The notes: generated by a model from the sequence alone, not told the origin. A DNA stretch of 64,000 bases from Actinomycetota bacterium (GCA_016870475.1 VGBO01000003.1:5800-69799); one strand, 5' to 3'. Shown: positions 994-57,530, numbered from the stretch's first letter. Made by a program: numbers and translations.

Positions 994-1061
994 GGAGCGA
1001 CTGTACCGACACGCCCGCTACCGTGCGGCGGTACGGCGAACGCTCGGAAAGGGACGGTCGG

Positions 1062-2114: not shown

Positions 2115-2131
2115 GCCCCATTGCCGGCGGC

Positions 2132-2824: not shown

Positions 2825-3930
2825 GAGGAACTCCCGATGGCGGAGGCCGGGTCGACGCGGAGCACCCGGCGCAGCGAGAACGCCGAGCCGGCGACCGCAG
2901 CGACGAGCAGGGACAACACACTGGAGACGATGCGCGGCACGGTGATCGTGACGGGGATCGAGCCGGGCGGGATCGCCGCATCGAGCAGCAGCACGACGAC
3001 GGTCGCGACCGTCGAGGCGATGACCGTGACAACGATCGCCTGTACGACGAGGCCGGCGAAGATCGTCCGCGACCGCGCCCCGATCGCCTTCAGCACGCCG
3101 TAGAGGGCGACCCGTTCGACGGTGAGCAGCGCGAAGAACAACGCGATGACGACGATCGCGATGGCGACGGTCACCCCGATGATCTGGTTGAAGGTCCCCC
3201 GCTGCTCGGCGACACCGGGGATCGCGTTCGCCGTGTCGGCGATCGTGAGCGACAGGGTGGCTCCACCGGTCGCGGCGTCGACGGCGGCGGCGAGGTCGAC
3301 GGGGCTCCCCGATCCGCGCACCACGAGCGACTGGAACACGCCGTCGGCGACGATCTCCGCCGGACGGTTCGCGGCGACGACCGAGCGCCAGGTCGCCGGT
3401 GAACCCCACAGCCCGGCCTGGCCGAGGTAGTTCGTGTCCTCCACGAAGCCGACCACGACGACGGGGCTACGAGCCGGTCCGAGGAGCAGTTCGGTGCCGA
3501 CCCGGACGCCGTCGGCCTCGAGGATCCGGTCGGCCCACACCTCGCCGGTGTCGGGCACGTTCGGCACGCCCCGCGGCGCGATCTCCACGCCGAACAGCGC
3601 GACGTCGGCGAGATCACGGGGGCCGTTGCCCGGTACCCGGGCACCGAGCTGGACGATGCCGAGCCCGCCGACCTCCTCCACTCCGGGTGCCGCCGCGACC
3701 CTGGCCCGGAGGTCGGGGTCGATGCGGCTGCGCAGGAAGGAACTCTGCGACGCCGCGGACGACACGACCACGCCGCCCTGCTGCGCGCGGACGGCGCCCG
3801 TGGAGTTCCGGATCAACCCGTCGAGTAGCCCGCCGAGGAACAGCAGCAGCAGTGCGATGAGGGTGAGGATGACCGTCGCCGTGGCGAACCGACCGGGACG
3901 GCGCCGGAGCTCCCGCAGTGCGATCTTCAT
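2821..3930 (-). CDS. ABC transporter permease, FtsX-like
   Basis: ORF track 369 aa. N-terminus MKIALRELRRRPGRFATATVILTLIALLL is typical of FtsX/MacB-type permeases, with C-terminal TM helices. Overlaps both neighbours by 4 nt. Confidence 0.8.
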   Translation of the reverse strand: MKIALRELRRRPGRFATATVILTLIALLLLFLGGLLDGLIRNSTGAVRAQQGGVVVSSAASQSSFLRSRIDPDLRARVAAAPGVEEVGGLGIVQLGARVPGNGPRDLADVALFGVEIAPRGVPNVPDTGEVWADRILEADGVRVGTELLLGPARSPVVVVGFVEDTNYLGQAGLWGSPATWRSVVAANRPAEIVADGVFQSLVVRGSGSPVDLAAAVDAATGGATLSLTIADTANAIPGVAEQRGTFNQIIGVTVAIAIVVIALFFALLTVERVALYGVLKAIGARSRTIFAGLVVQAIVVTVIASTVATVVVLLLDAAIPPGSIPVTITVPRIVSSVLSLLVAAVAGSAFSLRRVLRVDPASAIGSSS

Positions 3931-5048
3931 CGATCCATCCCCGTTCCCCCGAGCGCCGCGGCCGGGTCGATGGCGACGACCCGACGAGCCGACACGACCG
4001 ACGAGGCGGTTCCGAGGACGAGCAGTGCGATCGACCAGCCGATGACCGCGGCGGTCTCGAAGCGCAGCGTGATCCCGCCGATCCGCTGCACCGACAGCGG
4101 GGCGTAGAGCCCGATCCCGATCGCCAGCCCACCGCCGACGACGAGGAGCACCTGCACCAGCAACGCGGCGACGAGCCGCCCGGCCGGCGCACCGATCGCT
4201 CGGAGCAGGGTGAGCGACGGCGCCTTCTGGAACGTCACGATCAGGAAGAACAGGCCGGTCACGAGGGGGACGACGAGGCCGTAGAGCAGGAAGATCACCC
4301 GGAAGGACTGCTGCACCTGCGCAACGCCGGGCGTCTTCGCTGCGGCGTCCGCCCGGGTGAGGGCGTCGAGGTCGTCGGACGCTGCGTTGATCAGGGCGGC
4401 GGTGTCACCGGCGGAGATGCCCGGTGCGGGCTCGACGGCGAGCACGTTCGGCGGTGGGGTCCCGGCGTCGGGGTTCCGACTGCGCACGGCGTCGAGATAG
4501 GTCTCGTAGGCCACGAAGAGCGTCGGGGCCACGTTGAGCTGGATGTCGTCCGCGAGCCCGACGACCCGCACCTCGAGGCCGCCCGGTTCGATCCGCACGA
4601 CGTCGCCGACGCCGAATCCGGCTGCCTCGTCCGCGGCGCTCGCCACCGCTTCCCCCGGTCCCTGCGGGAGACGGCCGGTCACGAGGGTGGTCGGTGAGCC
4701 GAGCCCTTCCTCCTCGTAGCCGAGGACGGTGGCCTCGGACAGGGCGTCGTCCGCGGTCACGGTGAACGTCCCCTGCCCGATCCGACCGACGCGTCCTCCG
4801 GCGACGGCGTCGCGGACCTGCGCCTCGAGCTCGGGTCCGATCACGGATCCCTGGATGACCCGGCGGCCGTCGACGCTGTAGACGAGCACGGGGGCCGACT
4901 GGTTGCGGACGGCTCCGACGAAGGCGGTGATCAGCCCGTTCTGCAGTGACTGCTGGAAGAGGATGAGGAACACCAGCAGGCCGACAGCGGCCATCAGCAG
5001 CGTGAACCGCACCTTGGCGCGGCGCATCTCCTTGAGGGCGAGGAACAC
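3927..5048 (-). CDS. ABC transporter permease, FtsX-like (second permease)
   Basis: ORF track 373 aa. N-terminus MFLALKEMRRAKVRFTLLMAAVGLLVFLILF, a large periplasmic loop and C-terminal TM helices. Confidence 0.8.
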   Translation of the reverse strand: MFLALKEMRRAKVRFTLLMAAVGLLVFLILFQQSLQNGLITAFVGAVRNQSAPVLVYSVDGRRVIQGSVIGPELEAQVRDAVAGGRVGRIGQGTFTVTADDALSEATVLGYEEEGLGSPTTLVTGRLPQGPGEAVASAADEAAGFGVGDVVRIEPGGLEVRVVGLADDIQLNVAPTLFVAYETYLDAVRSRNPDAGTPPPNVLAVEPAPGISAGDTAALINAASDDLDALTRADAAAKTPGVAQVQQSFRVIFLLYGLVVPLVTGLFFLIVTFQKAPSLTLLRAIGAPAGRLVAALLVQVLLVVGGGLAIGIGLYAPLSVQRIGGITLRFETAAVIGWSIALLVLGTASSVVSARRVVAIDPAAALGGTGMDR

Positions 5049-5108
5049 GCCGCGGACGTTACCGGCGCGGTCCTCGCTACCGGACCGCGGCGCAGCCGCT
5101 GGCGACGG

Positions 5109-6275
5109 TCAGGTGGTGTAGTCGGCGTTGATCCGCACGTAGCCGTCGGAGAGGTCGCACCCGTACACCGTCCAGCTCCCTGCGCCGATGCCGAGCGACA
5201 CGGTGATGTGCACCTCGGCGGCGGCCATCGTCTCGGCGAGCTCGCGCAGCCCCTGCTCGTCGAGGTCACCGGGGAACACCTGCTGTGCGCCGAAGCGGAT
5301 GACGACGCGTTCCTGGTCGATGTCGGTGTCCTCCGCGCACTTGCCGACCGCCATGGCGACGCGACCCCAGTTCGGGTCGGCGCCGTGCACGGCCGTCTTG
5401 ACGAGCGGCGAGTTCAGGATCGACTTGGCGACCCGCTTGGCCTGCAGGTCGTCGCGTGCGCCGTCGACCGTCACCACGAGGAGCTTGGTCGCCCCCTCGC
5501 CGTCGCGTGCGAGCTGGCGGGTCAGCGAGAGGCACACGTCGCCGAGTGCATCGGTGAACGCGTCGACGTCGACGGGTCCGGCGAGCCCGTTGGCGAGGAT
5601 CGCCGCGGTGTCCGAGGTCGACGTGTCCGTGTCGACGCTCAGGCTGTTGAACGTGCGGTCGACGACGTGACGGAACGCCCGGTCGAGCTCGCCCGGGGAG
5701 AGCTCGGCGTCGGTGAACACGAGGGTGATCATCGTGGCCATGTCCGGCTCGATCATGCCGACCCCCTTGGCGAGGCCGACGATGCGGGCGTCGCCGACGG
5801 TCGCCTCGGCGATCTTCGGCACCGTGTCGGTGGTCATCATCGCCGTCGCGGCGGCGAGGGCGTCGGTGGCGGGGTAGGGGGGCGGTCCGAGCGTGGCGAG
5901 GTGCGCGTCGATGCGCTCCATCGGGTACTGGCGTCCGATCACGCCCGTCGAGGCGAGCAGGACGTCACCTTCCGGACAACCGAGCGCCCGGGCCACGCCA
6001 GCGACGACCGCTTCGGCGTTCGCCGTCCCCTGTGCCCCGGTCGCGACGTTCGCGTTCTTCGAGATCACCACGGCCGCCTGCAACCGGCCGTCGGCGATCT
6101 GGCGCCGTGACAGGGTGACGCTCGGTCCGGCGAACCGCGAGCGGGTGAAGGTGGCCGCGGCGCTCGCCGGCACCGACGACGCAACGACGAGGAAGTCGGT
6201 CGTCGTGTCCTTGATGCCGATGTTCGCGATGTGCGCGGTGAAGCCTGCGGGGAGCTGGGTCGTTTCGGGTGCCAC
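5109..6275 (-). CDS. argJ: Bifunctional glutamate N-acetyltransferase / amino-acid acetyltransferase (ornithine acetyltransferase)
   Basis: ORF track 5109..6365. Contains [12 protein letters not shown], the autoproteolysis motif [14 protein letters not shown] and the C-terminal [13 protein letters not shown] at 6275 ([12 protein letters not shown]) is preferred because the ATGs at 6365 and 6338 would overlap the divergent mdh start. Confidence 0.85.
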
Positions 6276-44976: not shown

Positions 44977-46422
44977 GTGCGACGGCACGCCGTCCGCCGC
45001 CGGACCCTCGCTGTCGTCGCCGGGCTCGCCGCGCTGTGCGGCATCGTCACGGCGGCGCCTGCGGCGACGGCCGGGTAGACCGGTGCGCCGCTGGCGTGGG
45101 TGCAGTTCGGCGGGGCCGACTCGGATATCGGGCGGACCGTCGTACCGCTGCCCGACGGCGGGCTCGTGGCCGGTGGGTTCTTCGGGTCGACGATCACGTT
45201 CGGGTCGACGACGCTGACCTCGGCCGGCTCCGACGACGCGTTCATCACCCGCCTCGACGCGTCGGGCGACGTGGTGTGGGCGATCGGCTTCGGCGGGACG
45301 TCGAGTGACCTGGTGGCCGACCTCGCGGTCGACGCCTCCGGAGCGATCACCGCGGTCGGGTTCTTCGGCAATTCGCTCACGATCGGCTCGACGACGCTCA
45401 CGTCGGCCGGCTCGCGTGACGGGTTCGTCGCCCGGTTCGATGCGAACGGGAACGCCCAGTGGGCGCTTCGCTTCGGCGGTACCGCCGTGGATTCGGCGCT
45501 CAGTGTCGTCCCAGCGGCGAATGGCGACGTGATCGTCGGCGGCTTCGTTGACAATGCAGCGACGTTCGCCTCGAGTGTCAGCGTGCCCGTCGGAGCGGGT
45601 CAGGGGAGCCGGGACCTCATCGTCGTCCGGCTCACGTCGGCCGGCGGAATCGTGTTCCTCGAACGCCTCGGCGGCACGGGCATCGACGGGTTCGGTGGCC
45701 TCGACATCGGACCGTCGGAGGAGGTTTTCGTCGGAGGGAACTTCGCGTCGCCGACCGTCGCGATCGGGTCGTCGACGCTCGTGAACGTCGGGAACATCGA
45801 TTTGCTGCTCGCCAAGCTCGGTGCCGACGGCGTGCCGTTGTGGGCGACCTCGTGCGGTGGTGCGGGTGCCGACGGCCTGCTCGACGTGACCGTCGACGGA
45901 GCGGGTGGTGTGTACCTGTTCGGCGAGGTCGAGGGTGCGGCCGTGTGTGGCGCCGGTGCGGTGGGAACGCCGCAGGGCGGTGCCGACCTGCTGGTGGCCC
46001 GCGTCGACGGGAACGGCACGGTGACGTGGGCGCAGCGCCACGGCGGCGCACTCGACGAGGCCGCACGCCAGTCAGCCCGTGGCCCGGACGGCGGGTTGGT
46101 GCTTGCCGGGGCGACCGACATCGCAGGGTCCGGTACGGGCGATGCGTTCCTCGTCGCCGTCGGTCCGGATGGGACGCTCCGGTGGACGGGAACGATGGGC
46201 GGCTCGGGCTACGACATCGCCCAGGGCGTTGCCATCGACGCCGAGGGCTATGTCTTCGTGACGCTCCGCTTCGAGGGCGGCGACCTCGATCCGGGAACCG
46301 CCGATCTGCAGGTCACGACCGCTGGACTGTCGGACGTGGTGGTTGTGACTCTCACCCCCGACGGGTCGCTGGCACCCATCGTCCGTCCTCGGCCGCCGGT
46401 CGCACCCGCCTACACGGGCTGA
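44977..46422 (+). pseudogene. Secreted SBBP-type beta-propeller repeat protein, interrupted by an in-frame TAG at 45076-45078
   Basis: GTG at 44977 encodes VRRHAVRRRTLAVVAGLAALCGIVTAAPAATAG (signal peptide), then TAG. The same frame continues TGAPLAWVQFGGADSDIGRTV into track ORF 45100..46422. That ORF has repeated G-x-D-x-G / VTxxGxF blocks. Confidence 0.6.
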
Positions 46423-46479: not shown

Positions 46480-46556
<77 letters not shown>

Positions 46557-46569
46557 AGCAAAGAACCAG

Positions 46570-46609
46570 GTCAGAGGCCCTTTCCGGGAAGTCGGGAAGG
46601 GCCTCTGAC
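46570..46609 (+). terminator. Perfect 13-bp stem hairpin downstream of the tRNA
   Basis: GTCAGAGGCCCTT (46570-46582), a 14-nt loop, then AAGGGCCTCTGAC (46597-46609). There is no U-tract. Confidence 0.5.
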
Positions 46610-46697
46610 GTTCCGAAGGGGCCGGGATGGGAACAAAACGCGAACACGCCGTCGGAAACGTCATCCAGGGCCCCTGGAGCGCACCAGCGCCCACGGG

Positions 46698-46835
46698 AGG
46701 GACTGCCGCGCGAGGAGGGGACATCTGAGCTGGCTTGCCCGAGAGGGTGGCCTGGAAGGATGTTCCAATACCCAAGCCCTATCCGCAGGAGTTCCGCGAC
46801 GATGTCGTGAAGGTCGCTCGGCGTCGACCGGAGCG
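46698..46835 (+). mobile_element. Relic left end of an IS3-family-like element (copy X)
   Basis: Reads IPKPYPQEFRDDVVKVARRRPE from 46768, resembling the MPKPYPxEFRxDVV N-terminus of IS3-family OrfA, but with ATA in place of ATG and no continuation. The upstream about 70 nt are colinear with copy Y at 54739. Confidence 0.4.
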
Positions 46836-46932
46836 AGCATCGCTTCGAGTCGCTCGGCCTGCGCGGCCCACCGCCGGGAGGTCTCACCAGCCCAATCAGC
46901 ACTCGCCAAACCCGGCGCGCCATCGGACCCGG

Positions 46933-47196
46933 TCATCGGTGATCCCTGTGGTCGTGTTGCCGGTGGCTGCGGGTGGCGACGGGCCGCCCGGCGAGTTCGC
47001 CAACGGCGTGCAACACATGATCAGGCACCACGGCTCGCGGTGGGTCGACGTGCCCGGTCGCCGGGTCGATCACGATCGTCACGGCGCCGCGCCGGATGCG
47101 GACTCGCCCGTCGACGAGCAGCGTGAGAGTGTGTTCGACGCGACCTTGGCAGTCGAGCAACTCGGCGCCCGCAAGGTAACGATCGAGGTCACTCAT
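46933..47196 (-). CDS. Hypothetical protein with a His-rich C-terminus
   Basis: ORF track 87 aa ending SHRQHDHRDHR. Lies 129 nt downstream of palindrome copy A. No family recognised; it may be a relic. Confidence 0.3.
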   Translation of the reverse strand: MSDLDRYLAGAELLDCQGRVEHTLTLLVDGRVRIRRGAVTIVIDPATGHVDPPRAVVPDHVLHAVGELAGRPVATRSHRQHDHRDHR

Positions 47197-47324
47197 GTCG
47201 GCCGACCGCCTGATCGGGGGCGACGCACTCGGTCGCCCCGAACGAGATGTTCGATGCTTCCGGAGGTGGTCTCCAGGCGCGGCCCACGGTTGACATGCAA
47301 CGACATGGGCAGATTCTAGCTGCG

Positions 47325-47343
47325 AATCGGAACGATTCCTATC
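47325..47343. promoter_or_regulatory. Metal-cluster palindrome, copy A
   Basis: AATCGGAA CGA TTCCTATC. Confidence 0.4.
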
Positions 47344-47372
47344 GACCGGTCGGCGATCCGTGGAGCGTTTTG

Positions 47373-47828
47373 TCAGGAGGCGCAGTCGGCGCAGATCCCG
47401 ACGGCGTCGAGTCGGTGTCCGGTCGGCCGGAACCCGGTCTTACTGAGCGCCCTTTCGAGGGCCGCTGCGAGTGACCGCTCTGTGCTCGCCGGCACCACGA
47501 AATCGTCGATCGAACCGCACTCGATGCAGATGCTGTGGTGGTGGTGGCCGATGAGGTCCTCGTCAAGTTCGTAACGAGTGTGCTCATCGGTACCAATGAC
47601 CTTCTGCACGACACCGACAGCTTCGAGGTCGGCCATGTTCCGGTACATCGAGCTGAGTGTCAGCTTGGGTCGTTGCTCGACGAGTTCGGGCATGGTGGCC
47701 GGTCTGGACAGCCCAGCGAGCAGCCCGACGAGTTCCCGCCGTCCTTTGGTGAAGACGAGTCCGGCAGCGCGAACTCGTTGCTCCGCGAGCTGATGAAGTT
47801 CGCTCGTGTCGACGGCCATGCCGACCAT
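47373..47828 (-). CDS. Fur-family metalloregulator (Zur-like)
   Basis: ORF track 151 aa (alternative ATG at 47819). Winged-helix N-terminus, then HHHHSICIECG and CADC (a CxxC...CxxC structural site plus a His cluster). Confidence 0.85.
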   Translation of the reverse strand: MVGMAVDTSELHQLAEQRVRAAGLVFTKGRRELVGLLAGLSRPATMPELVEQRPKLTLSSMYRNMADLEAVGVVQKVIGTDEHTRYELDEDLIGHHHHSICIECGSIDDFVVPASTERSLAAALERALSKTGFRPTGHRLDAVGICADCAS

Positions 47829-47852
47829 GATACGCCGGTGTCAACGATTTTG

Positions 47853-47871
47853 AATCGGAACGAGTCCGATC
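47853..47871. promoter_or_regulatory. Metal-cluster palindrome, copy B
   Basis: AATCGGAA CGA GTCCGATC, 25 nt upstream of the Fur-family gene ATG at 47828. Confidence 0.45.
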
Positions 47872-48031
47872 TCACGCCCAGGTTGGTGGCATCGAAAGCG
47901 GTGACGGGACCAGGTTATGACGAGTTCGCCGAGGACCTGGTCGGGGTGATGCCGATCGATCGGCAGCGATGCTTGCCGCCCGAAACGTCACGTGGTCGTA
48001 CTGGCGATCGGATCCGCCCAGGGGCACCGGT

Positions 48032-48953
48032 TCAGACCGAGGCGGAGAATGCTGTCGCGGTGCACGTGATGGTGAAGCCGAGTCGCTCGTACAGCCCGAG
48101 AGCGGAGGTGTTCGCAGCATCGACGAACAACATGGCCCGCTCGATCCAGCGGTCACGAAGGGACCGCAGGCCGGCCTCGGCCAGGGAGCGACCCACACCG
48201 CGGCCGTGATGGGTTGGCCTCACCGCGAGGACGTAGATCTCGCCGATCGGCGAGCTTGGCGAGCGGTGAACCTTCGTCCAACAGAATCCGAGCATGGTGC
48301 CGCAGTCGTCGACGTGAAGCAGCAGCCCGGTCGGATCGAACCAATCGCTGGCGAAGCCAGCCTCGAGTGACGCGTGTGTTCAGTTGCCCTGGTCGGAATG
48401 ACGCTCGAAGGCCAGGTTGTTCACCTCGAGGAGTGCTGATTCGTCGACGCCTGCCACGAACTCGCGGGTGGGGAGCGTTGGGCGCGTCGGGGCGGCGCCG
48501 AGTTGCGTCTGCATCTGGTGCAACTGACGCGTTGGCAGCAAGCCATGTCGTTCGGCGGTCGCCCGATCGGTGGCGGTGGCCTCGTGACACCACCACCGCA
48601 CGCTCCGGGCGTTGCGCGCGGACCCACTCGATAGCAGCGCCACACGCGGTGTCGAGAATGCGGGCACGATCGGCGCGGCTGTGAGGATCGACTGCGATGT
48701 CGAGGGTCTAGGTGGTGGAAGGTTCCGCCGTGGGAGTCGCCTGTGCGTATGCCGCAGGGTTCAGCGATCGATCGAGAACGGCGAGCGCTCGTGCGATGAG
48801 CGTCCGATGAGTGGCTGCGCTCAACGCGTGGTCACTGAGCGGGGGTCGGCCATCGACGTCCTGGCATCGATCGAGCAGCTCGCGAACCGACGACCGGCTG
48901 ATCGCGTCGAATGCGTCGATGTCGATGACCGAGTACGGCGATGGCGCGGTCAT
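48032..48953 (-). pseudogene. mshD: Mycothiol synthase (MshD)-like GNAT acetyltransferase, disrupted
   Basis: Three collinear pieces. (1) 48953-48711 MTAPSPYSVIDIDAFDAISRSSVRELLDRCQDVDGRPPLSDH..., then an in-frame TAG at 48708. (2) LDIAVDPHSR..., with a frameshift near 48610-48650 into ...VRWWCHEATATDRATAERHGLLPTRQLHQMQ...LLEVNNLAFERHSDQGN, then a TGA at 48380. (3) THASLEAGFASDWFDPTGLLL...MLGFCWTKVH...GEIYVLAVRPTHHGRGVGRSL. Confidence 0.7.
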
Positions 48954-49768
48954 GTGCGTCGGCGCAAGGTCGTCACGGTGGCGACTGCGAAGCAGGCCAC
49001 GGTGACCAGCGCAATGGTCGGGCCGGGCGGGGTGGCGAGGTGATAGCTGGCGGTGAGACCAACGAGCGCGGAGAGCACTCCGATTGCGATCGCGACTGCG
49101 GTCATGGTCTCGATTCGCTGCGTCAGGAGGCGTGCGGTCGCCGCTGGGGTGATGAGCATCGCAACGCTCATCAGCAGCCCGACGGTGCCGAGACTGACGA
49201 CGACGGTGATGGAGATCAGCACGATCAGCACGAGCCGTAGCGGACCAACCGGGATGCCCACCTGACGGGCGTGGCCGGCGTCGAAGGTGACGTTGCGCAG
49301 ATCGGAGAACGTGAATGCAACGATGCACAAAGCCACGGCCGTCAACCCGCTGTTGACGATGATGTCGCTGCGTGTCGTGGTGACGATCTGGCCGAGCAGG
49401 AAGTGGGTGAGGTCGACGCCGATGCGGTCGTTGCGCGAGATCAGGATGAGGCCTGTTGCGAACATCAGCGTCTCGGCCACTCCGATGGCGCTGTCGTGTC
49501 CGAGTCGTCGCTGCCTGTCGAACAAGGCGACCAGGAGCCCCATGGTCACTCCCGCTGCGAGCGCGCCGACGGTGATGCTGATGCCGGTGAGGTAGGCGCC
49601 GGCGACACCAGCGAGGATTCCGTGGCTCATTGCGTCGCCGAGGTAGGCGAGGCGCCGCAGGACGACCCACACGCCGATGGTGGGGGCGAGCACGCCGATG
49701 AGTAGTGCGGTGATTGCCGCGTGCTGCATGAATTGGGTCCGGTAGGGGTCGGTGAACCAGTCGATCAT
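48950..49768 (-). CDS. Metal (Zn/Mn) ABC transporter permease, ZnuB/TroC-like
   Basis: ATG at 49768 overlaps the ATPase stop (ATGA). MIDWFTDPYRTQFMQHAAITALLIG...LAYLGDAMSHGILAGVAGAY. 272 aa, polytopic. Confidence 0.85.
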   Translation of the reverse strand: MIDWFTDPYRTQFMQHAAITALLIGVLAPTIGVWVVLRRLAYLGDAMSHGILAGVAGAYLTGISITVGALAAGVTMGLLVALFDRQRRLGHDSAIGVAETLMFATGLILISRNDRIGVDLTHFLLGQIVTTTRSDIIVNSGLTAVALCIVAFTFSDLRNVTFDAGHARQVGIPVGPLRLVLIVLISITVVVSLGTVGLLMSVAMLITPAATARLLTQRIETMTAVAIAIGVLSALVGLTASYHLATPPGPTIALVTVACFAVATVTTLRRRT

Positions 49769-50520
49769 GCGGCGCTGCTCGATCTGGGGGCCGTGCCGAA
49801 GGTGGCCTCGATGTGATCGGAGTCGAGTGCCTGCCCGGGTGGGCCGTCGCCCACGAGCCGCCGGTTGACGGCGAGGCAGCGACTGAACCGCCTGCGGGCC
49901 AGCGAAAGGTCGTGTGTGGCGACCAGGAGGGACGTGCCAGACGCAGCGAGGTCGGCGAACAGGTCGAACAGGGCTTCGGTGCGGGGTTCGTCGACACCGC
50001 TGAGGGCTTCGTCGAGCAGGATCAGGCGGGCTTCCTGGGCGAGTGCGCGAGCCAGGAAGGCGCGCTGCATCTGACCGCCTGACAGCGTCCCCAGTGGACG
50101 CCGGCGCAGATCGGCCAATCCGACGCGTTCGAGTGCGTCGTGCGCGGCTTGACGGTGCCGTTGGCCGGGTCGTTGCCCGAGGCGCAGGAACCTGCGTCGG
50201 CCGGCGAGTACGAGCTGGCCGACGGTGATCGGGAAGTCGACGTCGAGATCGCTGCGCTGGGGGATGTAGGCCGCTCCGAGCCGGTCGCGCTGATGGTGGC
50301 AGTGGTTGCCGCACAGCTCGACCGAGCCGTGGTGGTTGACGAGTCCGCTGATGGCTTTGAACAGCGTCGATTTACCGGCACCGTTGGGGCCGACGACGGC
50401 GATCAGCTCACCGACGTCCACCTGGAACGACACGTCAACGAGTGCCTCGGTGGCGGGCGGGTAGGTGACGCCGACCCCTGTGAGCTGCAGGATCGGATGG
50501 TCTCGAGGTGCGTCGTTCAT
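49765..50520 (-). CDS. Metal ABC transporter ATP-binding protein, ZnuC-like
   Basis: ATG at 50520 overlaps the binding-protein stop (ATGA). GPNGAGKSTL, LSGGQMQRAFLARAL and LILLDEALSGVD. Confidence 0.9.
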   Translation of the reverse strand: MNDAPRDHPILQLTGVGVTYPPATEALVDVSFQVDVGELIAVVGPNGAGKSTLFKAISGLVNHHGSVELCGNHCHHQRDRLGAAYIPQRSDLDVDFPITVGQLVLAGRRRFLRLGQRPGQRHRQAAHDALERVGLADLRRRPLGTLSGGQMQRAFLARALAQEARLILLDEALSGVDEPRTEALFDLFADLAASGTSLLVATHDLSLARRRFSRCLAVNRRLVGDGPPGQALDSDHIEATFGTAPRSSSAA

Positions 50521-51488
50521 CCGGCGCATTCGAGGCCGGCTGCGAGCCGGCGCAGGTTGTCACGCATGATCGATGCGTAGGTGTCGCCAGCGTCGAGCTG
50601 GTCCTGGGTCAGGCCCTCGATCGGGTCGAGCAGGTCGAGCTCCGCGCCGATCTCACGGGCGACCGTCTTCGCCAGGTCCGGCGGCGCGATCGACTCCAGG
50701 AAGATCGTGGTGACGCCCTCGGCTTTCGCCTCGGCGGCGATGGCTTTCAGGGTGCGCGGGTCAGGTTCGACATCGGGGGAGATGCCGGCGATCGGGATCT
50801 GGCGGAGGTCGTAGGTGTCGGCGAGGTACCCGAAGGCGCGATGACTGGTGACGATCACGCGTGAGCGGCACTTGGCCAGGCCGGCGCGGTACTCGCGGTC
50901 GAGCCCGCGCAGGTCGGTCAGATACGTCTCCGCGTTGGCGCGGTACGTGTCAGCGTTGTCCGGGTCGATCTCCGCGAGCGTGTTCGTGATGGCGTCCACC
51001 ATGGTGATCATCCGACTCGGGTCGAGCCACACGTGCGGGTCGACGTCGCCCTCCAGCACCTCACCGTCCACCTCGCCCTCAGTACCGGCGAGTTGCTCGT
51101 CGACCCCAAGGAGATCGACCGAGTCGAGGAGGTCGAGCCGGGTCACGCCTGCTGGCGAGTTGGCGAGTGCGGCCTCCACCTGCGGCTGGAACCCGCGGCC
51201 GAGATAGATCACCACGTCGGCCTCTTCGAAGGCGCCCATCTGAGCCGGCTGTAACTCCAAGTCGTGAGGTCCCTGCCCAGGCGGCGTCAGATCGGTCACC
51301 GAAACCAGGTCGCCGCCCACGCCCCTGGCCGCCTCGCCGAGGGGATAGAACGCGGCGAGCACGGTCAACGTCGGCTGCGAGCCACCCGTGTCGTCGCTAC
51401 CGCACGACGCAACAACCAGGCTCGCCGACACGGCGAACATGGTGAGGGAAGTGCGGATCGGCCGGATGCGGAGCGGAGAAGATCTCAT
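50517..51488 (-). CDS. Metal ABC transporter substrate-binding lipoprotein, ZnuA/TroA-like
   Basis: ORF track 323 aa. Lipobox VVASCG. Cluster A-I hallmarks GQGPHDLELQP, DPHVWLDP and VTSHRAFGYLA. The flexible loop is acidic rather than His-rich (EGEVDGEVLEGDVD). Confidence 0.85.
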   Translation of the reverse strand: MRSSPLRIRPIRTSLTMFAVSASLVVASCGSDDTGGSQPTLTVLAAFYPLGEAARGVGGDLVSVTDLTPPGQGPHDLELQPAQMGAFEEADVVIYLGRGFQPQVEAALANSPAGVTRLDLLDSVDLLGVDEQLAGTEGEVDGEVLEGDVDPHVWLDPSRMITMVDAITNTLAEIDPDNADTYRANAETYLTDLRGLDREYRAGLAKCRSRVIVTSHRAFGYLADTYDLRQIPIAGISPDVEPDPRTLKAIAAEAKAEGVTTIFLESIAPPDLAKTVAREIGAELDLLDPIEGLTQDQLDAGDTYASIMRDNLRRLAAGLECAG

Positions 51489-51504
51489 GGCCGCATCGTA
51501 TCAG

Positions 51505-51523
51505 AATAGGACAGATTCCGATT
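51505..51523. promoter_or_regulatory. Metal-cluster palindrome, copy C
   Basis: Reverse strand reads AATCGGAA TCT GTCCTATT. Lies 17 nt upstream of the binding-protein ATG (51488) and 111 nt upstream of the divergent ArsR-family gene. Confidence 0.45.
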
Positions 51524-51633
51524 TGATAGCCGATCCGTTCTGTGGGTCGCTGGGTGAGGCGGTGCACGGTCAGTTGCGCGGTTCGCACGAATCGACGCTG
51601 GACGATGACCCAACCGAGCAGACGCGTGCACAC

Positions 51634-51963
51634 ATGCGAATGTATGCATATGAGCGAGAGGTGACGTCGCCTCCCCCGGTCTCGATCGCTCGGGGTGCCG
51701 AGCTGCTCAAGACTCTGGGCAGCCCGGTTCGACTCGGGGTGATCTTGCAGCTGCAGGCTCACGGTGAGCAGTGCGTGCACGAGTTGGTGGCCTCACCCGA
51801 GGTGTCCCAGCCACTCATTTCGCAGCATCTTCGGGTGCTTCGCGACGCGCGGCTCATCGTCGGTCGGCGCGCTGGCAAAGAGATCCGCTACTCGATCGCA
51901 GACGATCACGTCTCACACATCGTTCACGATGTAATTCGACACGCCGAGGAGGAACTTCCATGA
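51634..51963 (+). CDS. ArsR/SmtB-family metalloregulator with an intact alpha5-type site
   Basis: ATG at 51634 inside track ORF 51388..51963. HTH LGSPVRLGVILQL...CVHELV...SQPLISQHLRVLRDARLI. C-terminal IADDHVSHIVHDVIRHAEEE gives D-x-H, then H 11 residues later, then x-x-E, as in SmtB/CzrA alpha5 Zn sites. Confidence 0.85.
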   Translation: MRMYAYEREVTSPPPVSIARGAELLKTLGSPVRLGVILQLQAHGEQCVHELVASPEVSQPLISQHLRVLRDARLIVGRRAGKEIRYSIADDHVSHIVHDVIRHAEEELP

Positions 51964-52109
51964 CCATGACACATACGGTCCACGACGACCATCAGCACGA
52001 GCACGGCCCCAACTGTGGCCATGCCGCGACCGAGCACGACGGCCACACGGACTACTTCCACGATGGTCACGTGCATCACCAGCACGACGGTCATTGGGAC
52101 GAGCACTGA
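51960..52109 (+). CDS. 49-aa histidine-rich metal-binding peptide
   Basis: ATG at 51960 overlaps the ArsR stop (ATGA) and follows GAGGAGGAA. MTMTHTVHDDHQHEHGPNCGHAATEHDGHTDYFHDGHVHHQHDGHWDEH has 15 His, 10 Asp/Glu and 1 Cys. Confidence 0.6.
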   Translation: MTMTHTVHDDHQHEHGPNCGHAATEHDGHTDYFHDGHVHHQHDGHWDEH

Positions 52110-52162
52110 CTTGTCGGTGCCACCGGCCAGCTGAAGGTGCACGCCCTCACTGGGAAATCGCC

Positions 52163-52570
52163 TCAGCTCCGCAGCCCTGACAACGCGACGCTGACACTCG
52201 GTGGGGTCGAGCCGTTCGAGAACACCCGTGCCGCGACCGCTGCCGGGGCCGGGGTGACGGCGTCGGCGGCGATCCAGTCGCAAAGCTGGTCGACGATCTC
52301 GTCGTCGAGCACACCACCGACCCAAACACGATCAGTCGAGATCCCGGCCGGTCGCACGATCACGACGTTCGACCGCTCGCACGCGCCGACGCACCCGACG
52401 ACCCGGCTTCGACCGCCCGCGGAGACGGCGGCAGCGTCGATGCGCTCGCGGATGGCCGCGTGGTCGACGCCGGGGTGTTTGCGGTCGGTACCGCAACAGC
52501 ACCCGTCGCACACCTGGACCCGAATGTTCAACCAGCGTTCTCGACGGGCTGCACCAGAGCGTGTCGTCAC
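52163..52570 (-). CDS. Cys-rich thioredoxin-like [2Fe-2S] ferredoxin-like protein
   Basis: GTG at 52570 overlaps the WD40 stop (GTGA). VQVCDGCCCGTDRKHPGVDH...VVGCVGACERSNVVIV. 135 aa. The longer 340-aa track ORF is a read-through. Confidence 0.65.
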   Translation of the reverse strand: MTTRSGAARRERWLNIRVQVCDGCCCGTDRKHPGVDHAAIRERIDAAAVSAGGRSRVVGCVGACERSNVVIVRPAGISTDRVWVGGVLDDEIVDQLCDWIAADAVTPAPAAVAARVFSNGSTPPSVSVALSGLRS

Positions 52571-53616
52571 CGCTGCTCCAGCGACGTCTCGTGAACAGGT
52601 CGACGTTCCAACGTGCCATCGGCGCGTCCGACAAGGAGCGAGCCGCCTGCGGGATGCCAGACGACCGTGGCGACGGCGACGTCTCCGTTGTGCACGTCGT
52701 CGGGTGTCAGCGGTCGCTTGACCGTGCGTGGCGACGGCCAGAGCGCGAGGCGGCCGTCGGCGCCCCCACTGCACAGTCGCGTGCCGGCGGGTTCCCAGGC
52801 GAGGCAGCTGATGTGCCTTTCGTGGGCGTTGCCGGTGGCTGGCCTCGTTCCCTTCGGGCCCTTGCCCGAGAAGTCCCACACGGTGAGCTCGTCGAGGCAC
52901 GCCGAGGCCATCCAGTGGCTGTCGTCGCGGAAAGCGAGGTGCTGGATCTTGGCGGGGTAGCCCGACATCGAGAGGTCGTCGCCCGACCACAGCCGCCACA
53001 GATGGATGCTCGAGTCCTGGAACCCGGCGCACGCCCACTTGCCATTCGGTGCCAGCACGAGCGCGAGTGGTGACCCCTTGAACTGGTGAGTTCGTGACGG
53101 CGTTCCGGCGTGCAGCCGTTCGGGGTCGTACCAGGTGATGCCCCCGTACGAGGTGACACCGATCCGTTTGCCATTCGTCGCCCACGCGACCGCGGTGATC
53201 GTCGACGAGACCGCCGGATACCGCTGGAGCCTTGCCCCGTCACGGTCGCAGAGAACGAGGTGCCGTCCGTCTGCCACCGCCAGGAGCGCACCGTCGGGCG
53301 ACCAAGCGACATGGGGGATCCATGCCGTCCCGAGATGCGCCGCCAGCTCGTGCCCTGTTCGGTCGTAGACGCGGATCACGCCGTCCTGGCCGCCGATCGC
53401 GAGTCGCGAACCGTCAGGCGACCACGCGCCGCACAGCACACCCATCGGGTGCTCCGCCAACTTGCAGACCACCAAACCATCGACCGTGACGATCGCCGCA
53501 TCGCCTCCGAGCGAACCGGCGGCGAGCAGATCTCCGTGCGGAGAGATAGTCAGTGCTGTGACGTAGTCGCCGAGCTGCATCTCCCATTCGACGGGGCCGA
53601 TCATCGGACCAGACAC
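52567..53616 (-). CDS. WD40 repeat beta-propeller protein
   Basis: ORF track 349 aa. An alternative ATG at 53604 forms ATGA with the upstream stop. Seven to eight repeats of the type xAWSPDGxxLAxGGxDGxIRVYD. Confidence 0.8.
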
Positions 53617-54590
53617 TCCCGGAAACTGCGCTCCAACGCAGCACGTTCGAGGTTGCGGCCGATGAACACCAGCTTGTTGCTGCGCGCCTCATCTGGCCGC
53701 CATGGTCGGTCGGCTTGACCGTCGAGGAGCATGTGCACGCCCTGGAACACATATCGCTCGTTCATGCCGGCAATCGACAAGATGCCCTTGGAGCGAAAGA
53801 TGTCCGTGCCCTGCTCCGCGAGAAGTCGTCCGAGCCACTTGTTCAGCCGATCGCCGTCCAGATCCCCGTCGGCCTGGATGCCGACCGAAGTGACCGTGGC
53901 GTCGTGCTGGTGTTCGGCATCAGGATCGAGGAACGCCGGGTCGTCGATCAACACACGATCGAGATCGAATGCGCCCACGTCGAGGATCAGGTCGAGATCC
54001 ACCTGACCGTGGCTCGTGTGGATGAGCGGCGCCAATGTGTTGATTTCGCAGATCCGGCGTTCGACCTCGGCGAGCTGAGGGGCGTCGACGAGATCGACCT
54101 TGTTGATCACCACTCGGTCAGCGAACGCCAACTGCTCCACGGCTTCGTTCTCGACGCCGTCGGCCTTGATCTCATCGAGGTGCAGCAGGAGGTGCTTCGC
54201 ATCGACCACCGTCACGATCGCATCGAGCCGTAGCTGTGCCGATACCTCAGGATCGACGAAGAAGGTCTGCGCCACCGGGGCGGGATCGGCGAGTCCGGTC
54301 GTTTCGATCACGATCTGATCGAAACGGTCCTTGCGCTTCATGAGATTGCCGAGGATTCGGATCAGGTCGCCGCGAACGGTGCAGCAGATGCAGCCGTTGT
54401 TCATCTCGAAGATCTCTTCCTCGGCCTCGAGCACGAGCGCGTCGTCGATGCCGACCTCACCGAACTCGTTCTCGATCACGGCGATCCGCTTGCCGTGCTG
54501 CGCAGTGAGGATGTGGTTCAGCAGCGTCGTCTTGCCCGCCCCGAGGAACCCGGTGAGCACGGTGACAGGTACCTTCGAGTCGATTGCCAT
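53601..54590 (-). CDS. COG0523-family GTPase metallochaperone (CobW/YciC/ZigA-like)
   Basis: ATG at 54590 inside track ORF 53601..54671. Walker [13 protein letters not shown], metal motif [14 protein letters not shown], and a C-terminal CobW_C-like domain. Confidence 0.9.
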
Positions 54591-54595
54591 GACGA

Positions 54596-54614
54596 AAGCA
54601 TAACGGGTCCTATT
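54596..54614. promoter_or_regulatory. Metal-cluster palindrome, copy D (weaker left half)
   Basis: AAGCATAA CGG GTCCTATT, 6 nt upstream of the COG0523 ATG. The right half is identical to that of copy C. Confidence 0.35.
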
Positions 54615-54738
54615 CCGAGAGGACACGGTGATGATCCTCGGAGGGGCTCGCGAGACTCGGCCTCGTGCCACCCCAATGGCTTGTGTCGGTGACGGTCAAA
54701 GACTGCGCGGTTCTGCCGGTCGAAAAGTGCGCGGTGTA

Positions 54739-54870
54739 GGGCCTGCCGCGGGTGGGGGTGACATCTGATCTGTGGTGCTGGGGAGTGCCGCGGGAGAGGA
54801 TGTGTTCCATGTCGAAGGTCGTTCGGATGGAGCGCTCCGCAGGCCGAGTTGGTAGGCCGGGCGGCGTTCC
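54739..54870 (+). mobile_element. Relic IS-like end (copy Y), colinear with copy X
   Basis: Shares the blocks CTGCCGCG, GACATCTGA, AGGATGT and TTCCA with 46698-46767. Block spacings are identical (17 and 37 nt). It is followed by a short ORF, MSKVVRMERS..., at the position of the OrfA-like start in copy X. Confidence 0.35.
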
Positions 54871-54990
54871 ATGATCTGCCGGGGACCGACGCCCAGAGGC
54901 GTCGAACGGGGCAGCTGGCGGGGCCTCCGGGTCAGCGTGGCTGGTCGGCGACTAGCGCGTGGTGATGGAGTGGTCGCTCGCCTGCGGGCG

Positions 54991-55464
54991 TCAGCGAGGC
55001 GGGTTGTCGGACATCGTCACCGGGACGTCGAGCGTTCGGCCCGAGGAGAACCGGAGGGTGGCGGTGAAGGTGTCGCCGCTCTCGAGCGGGCCCGCAAGGT
55101 CGACCAGCATGATGTGGTTGCCGCCGGGTCGGAACTTGACGGTTGCGCCGGCTTCGATGACGACTTCGGCGACCTGCTCCATGGTGACGGTGCCACTGCC
55201 GACCGCGCCGTGTTGGTGGCCGTCGCCCCCGGCAGCATCGGATGTGTGGAGCTCGGCACGTCCGGCGATGTCGGTTGGCACGTCGGCAGCGACGAGCACG
55301 TCGCGGACGTCGCTACTGAGCTCGAGGTAGATCACCCCGTTCGTGGCCCCGGCTGGTGTCGGGCGGGCCCAGGCTCCCGACGCACCGAAGGCGATCTGGT
55401 CGCCGCCGCAACCAGCAAGCATCCAGCACGCGACGAACAGAGCGGCGGCGCGGTGCCTCCTCAC
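54991..55464 (-). CDS. Copper chaperone PCu(A)C lipoprotein
   Basis: GTG at 55464 overlaps the upstream stop (GTGA). Lipobox MLAGCGG. AELH...M...GNHIML fits the H(M)x10Mx21HxM motif. Confidence 0.8.
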   Translation of the reverse strand: MRRHRAAALFVACWMLAGCGGDQIAFGASGAWARPTPAGATNGVIYLELSSDVRDVLVAADVPTDIAGRAELHTSDAAGGDGHQHGAVGSGTVTMEQVAEVVIEAGATVKFRPGGNHIMLVDLAGPLESGDTFTATLRFSSGRTLDVPVTMSDNPPR

Positions 55465-56993
55465 GCCTGGCCGAACGTGCGGCGCAGCGGTGAAACGCTC
55501 TGGATGACCAACTTGTCGAATGCAACGATGACCAGCGCGACTGCTGCCCACAGCGGGTAGACGATGCCGAGCAGGACCGCGGCGCCGACGAGCTTCCATG
55601 TCAGGCGTGGGTCGGCGGGTCGGCGTGGGAGGCCGAGGGTGCCGGGCCGGCGACGCCTCCAGAACATGACGAAGGCGCTGATCACCGACCAGATTGACAG
55701 GACACACAGCAGTGTCATGAAAATGCGGCTGACCAATCCGAGCTGGGTGCCCATGTGGGTGCTCACGAGGTAGTCCATGCCGACGCTGATGGTACCGACT
55801 CCGTAGATCCGCTGTTCGTCGAGCGTGGCCCCGGAGAACTGGTCAACGAAGACGTTGCGTGCCTCGCCGGTCTGACGTGGCCACGAGTTGTAGAGCGTGA
55901 AACTGCCATAGACGGGGTTGCCGGCTTCGTCGGTCTCGTTGGCCGGGAACGAGATCGTGTAGCCGGGCTTCATTCCCTCGTCCTCGGCGATGCGTACCGC
56001 ACTGTCGAGGCTCATCGGGGACGGCATCGTGCCATCGACAGCGACGGGGGCATAGCTCGCAGGGATCACGAAGTCGCCGGTCGCCCACGGGATCTGGTTG
56101 CCGAACCGGTCGAGATCGCCACGGGTCGCGCTGGTGCTCGCCGTGTTCTCAGCTGCACTCCCCGGCGTGACCCGTTCGGCGAGAGAACTGAACCCGTCCG
56201 CCCAGTACGACGACCAAGCCATCCCGGACACGATCGTGAGCACCATGACCGGGATCATGACGAACCCGGTCAGACCGTGCAGGTCACGCCAACGTGCCCG
56301 TCCCCCGGCTGCCCACCTGACGCCGATCAACCGCCGTGCACCCTTGGAACCCTGGCTCTGACTCGACCGCCGCGGCCAAAACAGGTACAGCCCTGAACCG
56401 ACCAGCACCAGAGTCCAGACGCCGAGGACTTCCAGGACCAGATCACCCACGACGTACTCACGCATCACCGGTCCGTCGCTCCACAACGCCGCGACCGCAG
56501 GCAGCGTGACGGTGAGCGAGTCGTTGTTCAGGAAGCCGTGCAGACGATTCGACAGCCCGATCACTGCACCGCCAGGCTTCGAGACCCCGAGCACCTCAGC
56601 GGTGTAGGGGTCGACGAAGACGTGGAGGCCGCTGGCGCTGCCGTCATCGACGAAGAACCGTGTGGTCGCCTCCCGATCCGCTGGCGGGGTCAGATCGGAC
56701 ACGGTGCCGTCGGGGTAGGCGGCTGCAACAGCCTCTGCCTGCTCGTCGAACGACACGTACTCGGTCGAGCGCGATTCGGTCGAGCGGATGTCACCCTCGG
56801 TCGCTTGTTGGATCGGATCGGTGTACAGGATGACCGGACCTGTGACCGCCATCAGCAAGATGAACGGCATGGCGAACATGCCCGAGTAGAAGTGCACCCG
56901 CCACAACGAACGCCACTGACGACTCGACGAATCCCCGGACGACGCTGTCGGCGAAGTCGCCTCATCCCTGTTGGTCACGTTCGGCTCGCTCAC
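55461..56993 (-). CDS. PepSY-domain / PepSY-associated TM helix membrane protein
   Basis: GTG at 56993 is preceded by GAGGAG, inside the 653-aa track ORF. WRSLWRVHFYSGMFAMPFILLMAVTG, WRDLHGLTGFVMIPVMV and C-terminal TM helices. Confidence 0.75.
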   Translation of the reverse strand: MSEPNVTNRDEATSPTASSGDSSSRQWRSLWRVHFYSGMFAMPFILLMAVTGPVILYTDPIQQATEGDIRSTESRSTEYVSFDEQAEAVAAAYPDGTVSDLTPPADREATTRFFVDDGSASGLHVFVDPYTAEVLGVSKPGGAVIGLSNRLHGFLNNDSLTVTLPAVAALWSDGPVMREYVVGDLVLEVLGVWTLVLVGSGLYLFWPRRSSQSQGSKGARRLIGVRWAAGGRARWRDLHGLTGFVMIPVMVLTIVSGMAWSSYWADGFSSLAERVTPGSAAENTASTSATRGDLDRFGNQIPWATGDFVIPASYAPVAVDGTMPSPMSLDSAVRIAEDEGMKPGYTISFPANETDEAGNPVYGSFTLYNSWPRQTGEARNVFVDQFSGATLDEQRIYGVGTISVGMDYLVSTHMGTQLGLVSRIFMTLLCVLSIWSVISAFVMFWRRRRPGTLGLPRRPADPRLTWKLVGAAVLLGIVYPLWAAVALVIVAFDKLVIQSVSPLRRTFGQA

Positions 56994-57530
56994 GGTGTTC
57001 GCTCTCCTCGGTGGGGTTGGCGGGTTCGCAGGGCCCTTGCACCTGACGGGTAGACCGGCGTGCGGTTCCAAAAGTTCCCTCGTGCTCCCGGCGTTGAGCT
57101 TCGGTGGCAACGACGCAATCCCGTCGAACTGTCGACGGGGCCCGTGGTCGACTTGCGCAGCGCCGATCCCCGGGGCCTCGGTGAGGTCCCAGGTCTGGGC
57201 GAACTCGTCGGTGGTGTAGGTCATGTCGACGGCAGCCTCGAAGGACAGTCGTCCGGGTGGGCAGCAGTCATCGACGCGTTCCGTCGTCGCCGGGTTGTCG
57301 AGGCTGGCATCCACGGCATCGCGCACCGCTACCCAGGCGCCCACCAGGTCGGTCTCGACAGATAGAAGGTCGGTGTCTCGATGCCCGCACGCTTCGAGCA
57401 GGGCCTCGGCCCTGGGATCCACTCAACGAGATGCCGCACGACGCTGCAAGACGTCTCGCGCCGCCCATCCTGGACACGGTGACAGCGGTCGACCTGATGA
57501 GTCAGGACGTTCGCCGTCACTTGCACGTAT
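56994..57530 (-). pseudogene. DinB/MDMPI-like (mycothiol-dependent maleylpyruvate isomerase N-terminal domain family) relic
   Basis: SPCPGWAARDVL at about 57450-57485, an in-frame TGA at 57423-57425, then VDPRAEALLEACGH...TYTTDEFAQTWDLTEAPG. There is no own stop, so it runs in frame into the PepSY gene. Confidence 0.35.

Follow-up and report, generated by a model that had tools for sequence, protein, structure and literature searches.

Islands that target tRNA genes, such as the pSAM2- and SLP1-type elements of actinomycetes, have an att identity of approximately 50-110 bp that comprises the 3' part of a tRNA from the anticodon loop, and in the standard model all DNA between the full tRNA and the last tRNA fragment has been inserted. 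The locus described here, which holds a zinc module, resembles such islands: one end has an intact tRNA, the tRNA 3' half recurs in direct repeats that begin at the anticodon loop, conserved arms have doubled short motifs, the displaced chromosomal copy is at the far end, accretion is tandem, and a tyrosine integrase with an arm-binding domain is encoded at one such locus (L109). It differs from them in that the zinc module has no integrase, excisionase or transfer genes, the copy analyzed here has no attR, and the repeat in a 98%-identical relative is unusually long (188 bp, running past the terminator). The locus also resembles composite transposons such as Tn10 and Tn5, with two IS-derived sequences (termed X and Y) around a discrete functional gene set. 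Unlike in Tn10 and Tn5, X and Y come from different IS lineages, only the inner-left and outer-left ends remain, no target duplication is seen, and the same cargo is found in the same place without ISs in a relative.

IS3 elements of Actinomycetota are the closest described relatives of X and Y themselves. A 1264-bp element of Rhodococcus qingshengii (NZ_CP042915.1, 2684-3947) is colinear with X (IS nucleotides 1-122) and Y (1-79), as is a second full-length reference, a 1280-bp element on a plasmid of Streptomyces sp. Caat 7-52 (NZ_CP098484.1). The plasmid elements share with X and Y a 25-bp terminal inverted repeat (GGGNCTGC...GGTGACA), a leader of approximately 45 nt ending in GGAAGGATGT, and an OrfA that begins M/V-PKPYPxEFRxDVV. 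The reference element L001 (1264 bp, 25-bp inverted repeats) encodes an OrfA with HTH_Tnp_1 and an OrfB with rve. In comparison with functional IS3 elements, approximately 90% of the element is gone from X and Y, which have no orfB (rve), frameshift site or right inverted repeat (IRR), and their inverted repeats carry CTGCCGCG where those of the plasmid elements carry CTGCTGCA. X and Y are relics, not functional IS3 members.

The window is the whole 64,000-nucleotide stretch of DNA that was analyzed. The features at and around its zinc module were as follows.

46480-46556, + strand: intact tRNA-Met (CAT), from ARAGORN and Rfam (tRNA, 64 bits)
46512-46556, + strand: 3' part of the tRNA-Met from the anticodon loop, att-core-like, repeated in relatives as fragments that all start CTCATAA
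46570-46612, + strand: G+C-rich terminator-like hairpin 3' of the tRNA, seen in the sequence and included in the repeated unit
46613-46697, + strand: arm-like segment, candidate P' arm, with the doubled motif GAACAAAACGCGAACAC at 46631-46652
46699-46825 (end approximate), + strand: relic X, assigned as an IS3-family left end from plasmid blastn, alignment and tblastn; left inverted repeat (IRL) at 46699-46723, leader, and orfA codons 1-20 at 46768-46827 with the start codon mutated to ATA
46933-47196, - strand: orf87, a small His-rich protein with no Pfam family (gene call)
47373-47828, - strand: Fur-family regulator, Zur-like (PF01475, E 2e-15)
48032-48295, - strand: 87-aa GNAT acetyltransferase fragment (Pfam Acetyltransf_1)
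48950-49768, 49765-50520 and 50517-51440, - strand: znuB, znuC and znuA (Pfam ABC-3, ABC_tran and ZnuA)
51487-51963 and 51960-52109, + strand: ArsR/SmtB-type regulator (HTH_5) and a 49-aa ORF (gene calls)
52163-52570, 52567-53604 and 53601-54590, - strand: operon of a 135-aa protein, a WD40 protein (WD40) and a COG0523 protein (cobW/CobW_C)
54693-54986, no strand: right-border DNA specific to the window lineage, from comparison with L004/L103
54739-54830 (end approximate), + strand: relic Y, assigned as an IS3-family left end from plasmid blastn and alignment; IRL at 54739-54763, leader, and ATG at 54810, the homologue of the orfA start codon
54991-55422 and 55461-57344, - strand: PCuAC copper chaperone and PepSY_TM protein (gene calls), common to L004

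Pfam matches agreed with the gene content of the original prediction for the Fur/Zur, ZnuB, ZnuC, ZnuA, ArsR/SmtB, WD40 and COG0523 proteins, but the supposed ferredoxin at 52163-52570 had no Pfam match. The orf87 gene accompanies zinc modules in relatives (tblastn matches in L004 and L008-L011). To the left of X, the hairpin was found copied along with the tRNA 3' half in L004, L103, L104 and L112. The segment at 46613-46697 may act as an integrase arm; in the 98% relative, where the 188-bp repeat (46510-46697) occurs twice, it is the final stretch common to both copies.

X and Y were originally described as sharing ordered blocks in direct orientation, and the blocks lay where they had been placed: CTGCCGCG at 46703 and 54743, GACATCTGA at 46720 and 54760 (8,040 bp apart), and AGGATGT at 46757 and 54797, with spacings of 17 and 37 nt that are identical in both relics. 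A repeat search of the window returned 46698-46763 and 54738-54803 as a 66-nt ungapped direct repeat with 71% identity. The local alignment score of X against Y was 42; 500 dinucleotide shuffles gave 19.7 +/- 2.8 (at most 35), and none of 1,961 real 251-nt segments from the same window scored above 39. The colinear likeness of X and Y is thus above chance and beats all of the shuffles and real-segment controls. The inverted repeat pattern CTGCYGCRNGNNNNGGKGACA occurs at only 2 sites in the 64 kb, X and Y, both on the + strand.

Plasmid blastn confirmed that both segments are left ends of the IS3 family, in direct orientation on either side of the zinc module. X matched 125 records (at most 82% identity over 122 nt, E 3e-23), in which the matching genes were annotated "IS3 family transposase", and Y matched 6 (85% over 61 nt, E 1e-8). 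Homology of both begins exactly at the outer tip of the 25-bp inverted repeat of full-length elements of 1264-1280 bp. The frame in X that had been read as the N-terminus of an OrfA-like protein, IPKPYPQEFRDDVVKVARRR, matches residues 1-20 of a genuine IS3 OrfA at 75% identity (tblastn E 2e-5), and the reference OrfA matched by these 20 codons hits PF01527. The short ORF noted at the same offset in Y starts at an ATG (54810) that is homologous to the orfA start codon, and Y retains orfA only around that codon. These alignments make X and Y almost certainly IS3-family left-end relics.

IS3 elements make a target-site duplication of 3-5 bp, but only one end of each element survives here. No inverted partner that could represent the right inverted repeat, which would lie some 1.2-1.5 kb away, was found within 500 bp of X or Y, or anywhere in the 64 kb, and OrfB had no tblastn match anywhere in the window. 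The 120-160 nt downstream of each relic scored at shuffle level against the whole IS, and an internally deleted IS (IRL...IRR) was rejected on that result.

We aligned X and Y with plasmid elements (11 sequences) and bootstrapped the grouping. X corresponds to IS positions 1 to approximately 122 of the type with leader CTGGCTTGCC, which is common to elements of Streptomyces, Mycolicibacterium, Curtobacterium, Dietzia, M. avium and Gordonia (75-78% identity). Y corresponds to positions 1 to approximately 79 of the type with leader CTGTGGTGC and a GGATGTG that is 1 nt longer, common to elements of R. qingshengii, Nocardioides and Rhodococcus DMU1 (68-78%). X and Y are 65% identical to each other overall and 54% in the leader, and they grouped with these different extant IS3 types with bootstrap values of 0.98 and 1.0. 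X and Y are therefore not copies of the same IS, as the ends of a composite transposon would be, and very probably had independent origins. The CTGCCGCG state of both inverted repeats may reflect a common host-resident source, and we treat the shared polarity and similar stub length as coincidence.

The closest other lineage with the same zinc module is represented by an Acidimicrobiales MAG (L004/L103). Its reverse complement (L004rc) matches window positions 47274-51628 at 90% and 51799-54618 at 88%, and the DNA common to both spans 46843-54692, with X (46699) and Y (54739) just outside. In L004/L103 the module has a tRNA-Met 3' fragment on its left, PCuAC-PepSY_TM on its right and no IS relics, and direct repeats of the tRNA-Met 3' half, with their arms conserved, lie on both sides of it. 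The flanks of the L004 module hold two tRNA-Met 3' fragments plus the hairpin, 88-89% identical to 46510-46608, with no intact tRNA. The right-hand fragment has the same arm of approximately 160 nt as attR-like sites beside unrelated cargo in other contigs. In place of 54693-54986, L004/L103 has 2.8 kb that includes a B-type attR, made up of an arm and a tRNA-Met 3' fragment, together with genes for a LysR regulator and a darcynin-like protein; no remnant of the attR arm was found in 54693-54738. Judged only by the tRNA fragment and PCuAC-PepSY_TM, the two modules would occupy the same chromosomal site. X and Y were absent from L004-L016, and none of the fetched Acidimicrobiia loci had an IS3 of their type; a tblastx comparison of the IS with these loci gave only noise in high-GC DNA and was discarded.

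The window has the tRNA adjacency of an integrative island, with an intact tRNA-Met and a module that starts within 400 bp 3' of it. Its island status rests on homology to L004, because no attR-like tRNA fragment follows the module in the window. Among 49 metagenome loci, the full tRNA was present in 13 and fragments in approximately 28, all starting at the anticodon loop. One contig from the 98% relative, Ga0169931_10000351, reads full tRNA, 188-bp repeat, foreign DNA, tRNA fragment, 188-bp repeat, X, orf87 and Zur; its window-like copy is located at the tRNA fragment. A different island is thus present in this relative, and absent from the window, between the tRNA and X; islands are actively accreting at this tRNA-Met in the 98% relative. 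A tyrosine integrase with an arm-binding domain (PF00589, PF14659, PF14657) was encoded 2 kb from the full tRNA in L109. No integrase was found in or adjoining the module in the window, L004, L005 or L011, and none lay up to 4 kb from the ends of the additional island carried by the 98% relative. We searched for an empty site, with tRNA-Met joined directly to PCuAC, through homologues of the SBBP gene beside the tRNA; there was none among the relatives, and the only candidate contig (L100) ends 230 bp past the tRNA. Nothing specific on a tRNA-Met island family in Acidimicrobiia was described in the literature searched.

With moderate confidence, we favor a model in which the zinc module is the cargo of an island at tRNA-Met with borders scarred by two independent IS3 insertions and deletions. 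The module would belong to an old, degenerate and now immobile integrase-type island at the 3' end of the tRNA, and we infer that it derives from the same island insertion as the L004 module. Two different members of one IS3 subgroup would have inserted separately, just inside each module border, and each IS would then have lost everything beyond its first 80-125 nt or so through a rightward deletion. Such IS-linked deletions probably took neighboring DNA too; on the left the loss would include the integrase side, and on the right it would include the copy of the tRNA 3' half that formed attR. The ISs would have helped to erode the ends of the island rather than having brought the module.

IS3 stubs are routine genome debris and an ordinary finding, of value as markers only; they show that both module borders were hit and trimmed in the window lineage after it and the L004 lineage had separated. 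What is useful is the corrected mechanism, tRNA-Met-integrated islands rather than IS-bounded transposons. Such islands now appear to be, or to have been, the vehicle of metal-homeostasis modules in uncultured lake Acidimicrobiia. The island family is a more interesting by-product than the IS finding: the same tRNA-Met is a busy integration hotspot, and its recognizable att architecture could help find islands in MAGs of the group. More tentatively, the Zur/ZnuABC/COG0523 zinc-starvation module of freshwater Acidimicrobiia could be cargo of an undescribed family of tRNA-Met-targeting islands. Members of this family would pile up in tandem, have arms of approximately 160 nt with doubled CGCGAACA or GTACAACA, and always recombine at the anticodon loop. 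Most copies would be without an integrase and be mobilized in trans or by homologous recombination between repeats, and the IS3 scars would have frozen the island in the window lineage.

Alternatively, the module could be ancestral and merely lie beside a tRNA-Met hotspot, with the L004 fragments left by islands that inserted around it and then partly decayed, and X and Y random intergenic IS scars. Across Acidimicrobiia, zinc modules made of the same genes in a rearranged order are found with no tRNA nearby (L007-L010), and the hotspot clearly accretes unrelated cargo. The lack of any integrase associated with the module fits an ancestral origin as well, as does the lack of a clear compositional signal: module G+C was 61-69% and not clearly different from that of the flanks. 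However, the L004/L103 module lies between two att-type fragments, and in L011, too, the module is closely followed by a tRNA-Met fragment. In addition, nucleotide identity between the window and L004 is 88-90% in the module, above the 78% of the common right flank. We consider an ancestral module unlikely.

The original prediction proposed that the module once moved as a composite or IS-flanked unit; two direct IS3 copies would then have captured and moved the zinc genes before decaying to left-end stubs. That proposal was not borne out and is very unlikely. Both relics are indeed direct IS3 left ends just outside the DNA common to L004, and their inverted repeats are similar, with substitutions not seen in the plasmid elements. 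However, they belong to different sublineages, and although the IRL of X still provides an outer end on the left, the IRR of the right-hand IS, which transposition would require as the outer end on the right, is missing. L004/L103 has the same module between the tRNA-Met fragment and PCuAC with no IS trace, and IS3 has no site specificity that would place a module beside tRNA-Met twice. The cassette with these ISs had no second context among the fetched genome and metagenome loci, and the plasmid search covered X and Y only.

It is very improbable that X and Y are short non-autonomous IS3-derived elements or selected regulatory pieces (a solo inverted repeat plus transposase promoter). Both stubs keep the same IS part (inverted repeat and leader) and are 100% conserved in 98%-identical relatives while nearby DNA differs by approximately 2%. 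However, neither has a matching IRR within 500 bp and the 64 kb contains no further copies, so they are not MITEs. Their promoters, directed inward, would run into convergent genes (orf87/Zur and PCuAC) from the 3' side and have nothing to drive, and the orfA start codon is destroyed in X. A MITE or solo-repeat element was rejected on the missing partner and copy number, and a structured RNA was rejected on Rfam, which matched only the tRNA and neither relic.

X and Y are fixed in the Lake Tanganyika population (16 and 10 contigs, 99.9-100% identical, no indels), although these 26 contigs are uninformative on presence or absence of the relics among strains. The relics were also present in the 98% variants, X in L104 and Y in L160.

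Two segments in direct orientation bracket the zinc module (orf87, Zur, znuBCA, an ArsR/SmtB-type gene and the WD40/COG0523 operon), which lies beside a tRNA-Met gene:

46480-46556, plus strand: intact tRNA-Met gene (CAT)
46699 to about 46825, plus strand: left IS3-family relic, X
54739 to about 54830, plus strand: right IS3-family relic, Y

A repeat search of the window returned 46698-46763 and 54738-54803 as an ungapped direct repeat of 66 nt with 71% identity. The colinear blocks CTGCCGCG, GACATCTGA and AGGATGT described in the original prediction were recovered at 46703, 46720 and 46757 in X and at 54743, 54760 and 54797 in Y, with spacings of 17 and 37 nt in both segments and 8,040 bp from one segment to the other. 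Pairwise alignment of X and Y gave a local score of 42, compared to 19.7 ± 2.8 for 500 dinucleotide shuffles (maximum 35; 0/500 at 42), and 0 of 1,961 real segments of the 69%-GC window reached that score (maximum 39). The similarity is modest, yet exceeds chance at the base composition of the window.

Both segments were compared by blastn with 72,556 plasmids. X matched 125 plasmid records, the best of them 82% identical across 122 nt (E 3e-23), and the matches coincided with annotated IS3 family transposase genes of Streptomyces, Rhodococcus, Mycobacterium, Curtobacterium and others. Y matched 6 records (85% over 61 nt, E 1e-8), mostly one Rhodococcus qingshengii IS3 in which OrfA has an HTH_Tnp_1 domain and OrfB an rve domain. 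Two full-length elements taken as references were 1264 and 1280 bp long, both with 25-bp terminal inverted repeats. In alignments, the left inverted repeat's outer tip was exactly where homology began in both X and Y, and from there it continued via the leader into orfA; as the original prediction proposed, both segments are IS3-like end relics. X corresponds to IS positions 1 to about 122, including orfA codons 1-20 at 75% identity, with the start codon mutated to ATA. Y corresponds to positions 1 to about 79, and the ATG at 54810 is the homologue of the orfA start. DNA beyond either stub had no similarity to any portion of the IS, no right inverted repeat was present near X or Y or elsewhere in the 64-kb window, and no OrfB remnant was found. 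X and Y are therefore truncated left ends, and the same three results rule out MITEs or internally deleted elements.

X and Y were then aligned with nine full-length IS left ends. The CTGGCTTGCC leader of X is the one found in elements from Streptomyces, Mycolicibacterium, Curtobacterium, Dietzia, M. avium and Gordonia (75-78% identity). Y has the CTGTGGTGC leader and a GGATGTG longer by one base, both seen in elements from R. qingshengii, Nocardioides and Rhodococcus DMU1 (68-78%). The two relics are 65% identical to each other overall and 54% in the leader, and column bootstraps grouped X and Y with their own types in 98% and 100% of replicates. Leader types and bootstraps together rule out two copies of one IS. 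Since neutral decay of sister copies would not converge on separate living lineages, X and Y stem from independent insertions, made by ISs that are related yet not the same. The inverted repeats of X (46703-46718) and Y (54743-54758) both have CTGCCGCG and a G-rich spacer, a state absent from all nine plasmid IS3 elements, which have CTGCTGCA there; host-resident variants, or else AT-to-GC drift in parallel, could account for the shared state.

The window matches a metagenome contig of 64.7 kb from Lake Tanganyika. Twenty-six further contigs from the Lake Tanganyika population were 99.9-100% identical to the window with zero indels, so both relics are fixed in that population. A ZnuA scan of species-representative genomes put the organism in Acidimicrobiales/Acidimicrobiia, and the nearest other lineage was that of locus L004, to which L103 and L123 are nearly identical. 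The L004 module is 88-90% identical in nucleotides to the window module (47274-51628 and 51799-54618), and the PCuAC and PepSY_TM genes to its right are also present (78%). There was no trace of X or Y in this lineage. At the amino acid level, window and L004 are 95% identical for COG0523 (module, 47274-54618) compared to 66% for PCuAC and 74% for PepSY_TM (flank, 54987-56933); the higher identity of the module could mean that it was exchanged more recently, or could just reflect unequal constraint.

The L004 module is flanked on both sides by a copy of about 99 nt comprising the tRNA-Met 3' half and terminator hairpin, 88-89% identical to window 46510-46608; ARAGORN found no intact tRNA in the L004 locus. 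The right-hand copy is preceded by an arm of about 160 nt, with CGCGAACA doubled and the run CTACCTGCAC...CGCCGACCAGA...GCTGTCGG, and this arm recurred upstream of tRNA-Met fragments in other contigs beside unrelated cargo. In other relatives, L011 has a tRNA-Met fragment just past its zinc module, and L005 has a full tRNA 4.4 kb from Zur. Left of its first tRNA fragment, L004 (reverse orientation, 1-6170) has a second zinc-related block with L31 type B and L28 paralogues, a second Zur, a second ArsR, and COG0523 and WD40 paralogues; in this region L123 has two tRNA fragments and L004 one.

The tRNA-Met gene is an active integration hotspot. A metagenome scan with the tRNA 3' end and hairpin returned 49 loci, 13 with a full tRNA and about 28 with fragments, all of which start at the anticodon loop, CTCATAA. 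Upstream arms formed at least two conserved families, A with GTACAACA twice and B with CGCGAACA twice. The fragment family, seen at window 46510-46697, in L102-L150, L004 and L011, recurs widely across the clade's metagenome contigs. At one locus, L109, the full tRNA precedes genes for a Fic protein and for a tyrosine integrase that has SAM-like and arm-binding domains. These fragments and arms resemble an att system belonging to a so far undescribed family of integrative elements. The independent assemblies L093, L094 and L097 break inside the tRNA-Met 3' half at window 46529, and L096 does so at about 46537; such breaks would be expected if this stretch were repeated or variable in the population.

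The most informative case is a relative 98% identical to the window (contig Ga0169931_10000351), which has FMO, SBBP, the full tRNA-Met, hairpin and arm to 46697, then foreign DNA, and past this a tRNA-Met 3' fragment, hairpin, arm to 46697, X, orf87 and Zur:

L112 3568-7792 and L104 1-3763 (pieces of this relative): extra island between full tRNA-Met and X, with glyoxalase, LuxR regulator and phosphonate ABC transporter

This island is flanked by a 188-bp direct repeat whose copies are 92.9% identical; the window-like copy adjoins X, and the foreign 3' half sits on the full tRNA. Integration into the 3' end of a tRNA classically leaves attL and attR in this arrangement. Homology of the two copies ends at the IS junction; a simple explanation would be that the IS inserted into the arm or island end and that a later deletion removed DNA to its right.

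We infer, as the most likely history, that the window module descended from the same island as that of L004, an old integrative island at tRNA-Met with the zinc module as its cargo. Once the window lineage had split from L004, but before the 98% variants diverged, two different IS3 elements would have inserted in it, one just inside the left arm and the other in the interval separating the COG0523 promoter from the distal att region, and rightward deletion would then have truncated each. Deletion at the right border, where window-specific DNA amounts only to 54693-54986, would explain the missing attR fragment, LysR and darcynin-like genes, still held by L004. Deletion at the left border would explain why the DNA beyond the arm is gone; in L004 this position holds an RHH gene, and it is on this side that integrases usually sit. 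The IS identity, separate lineages and truncation of X and Y and the comparative layout are observations, and the content of the deleted DNA, like the shared island descent, is inferred. Alternatively, the module may be ancestral DNA beside an integration hotspot, because no integrase accompanied it in the window, L004, L005 or L011 or occurred within 4 kb of either extra-island end, no relative examined had an empty tRNA-Met site without the module, base composition was uninformative on its origin, and the L004 array was compared only short of its left flank. We consider this unlikely, but a serious competitor to the island history. That a composite transposon carried the module, as the original prediction suggested in having it move as an IS-flanked unit, is very improbable and unsupported, as X and Y are independent, truncated insertions of distinct ISs absent from the L004 lineage. 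The IS relics are an ordinary finding, and the tRNA-Met att architecture that emerged alongside them is of modest interest.

Other features were observed in the window. A palindromic GAATCGGAACGATTCC-like motif is repeated at 47324-47343, 47852-47871, 51504-51523 and 54607-54634, upstream of the Zur gene, the znuA/ArsR divergent region and COG0523; these are probably Zur boxes, which would make the whole module one regulon. Small orf87 (46933-47196) has a His-rich C-terminus and no Pfam family, and is found with the zinc modules of L004 and L008-L011, where its position and orientation vary; it is possibly an uncharacterised zinc-regulon member. A 144-nt direct repeat with 183-bp spacing (45156-45482) lies within the 440-aa gene adjoining the tRNA, and these are coding repeats, since the gene product belongs to the SBBP beta-propeller repeat proteins.
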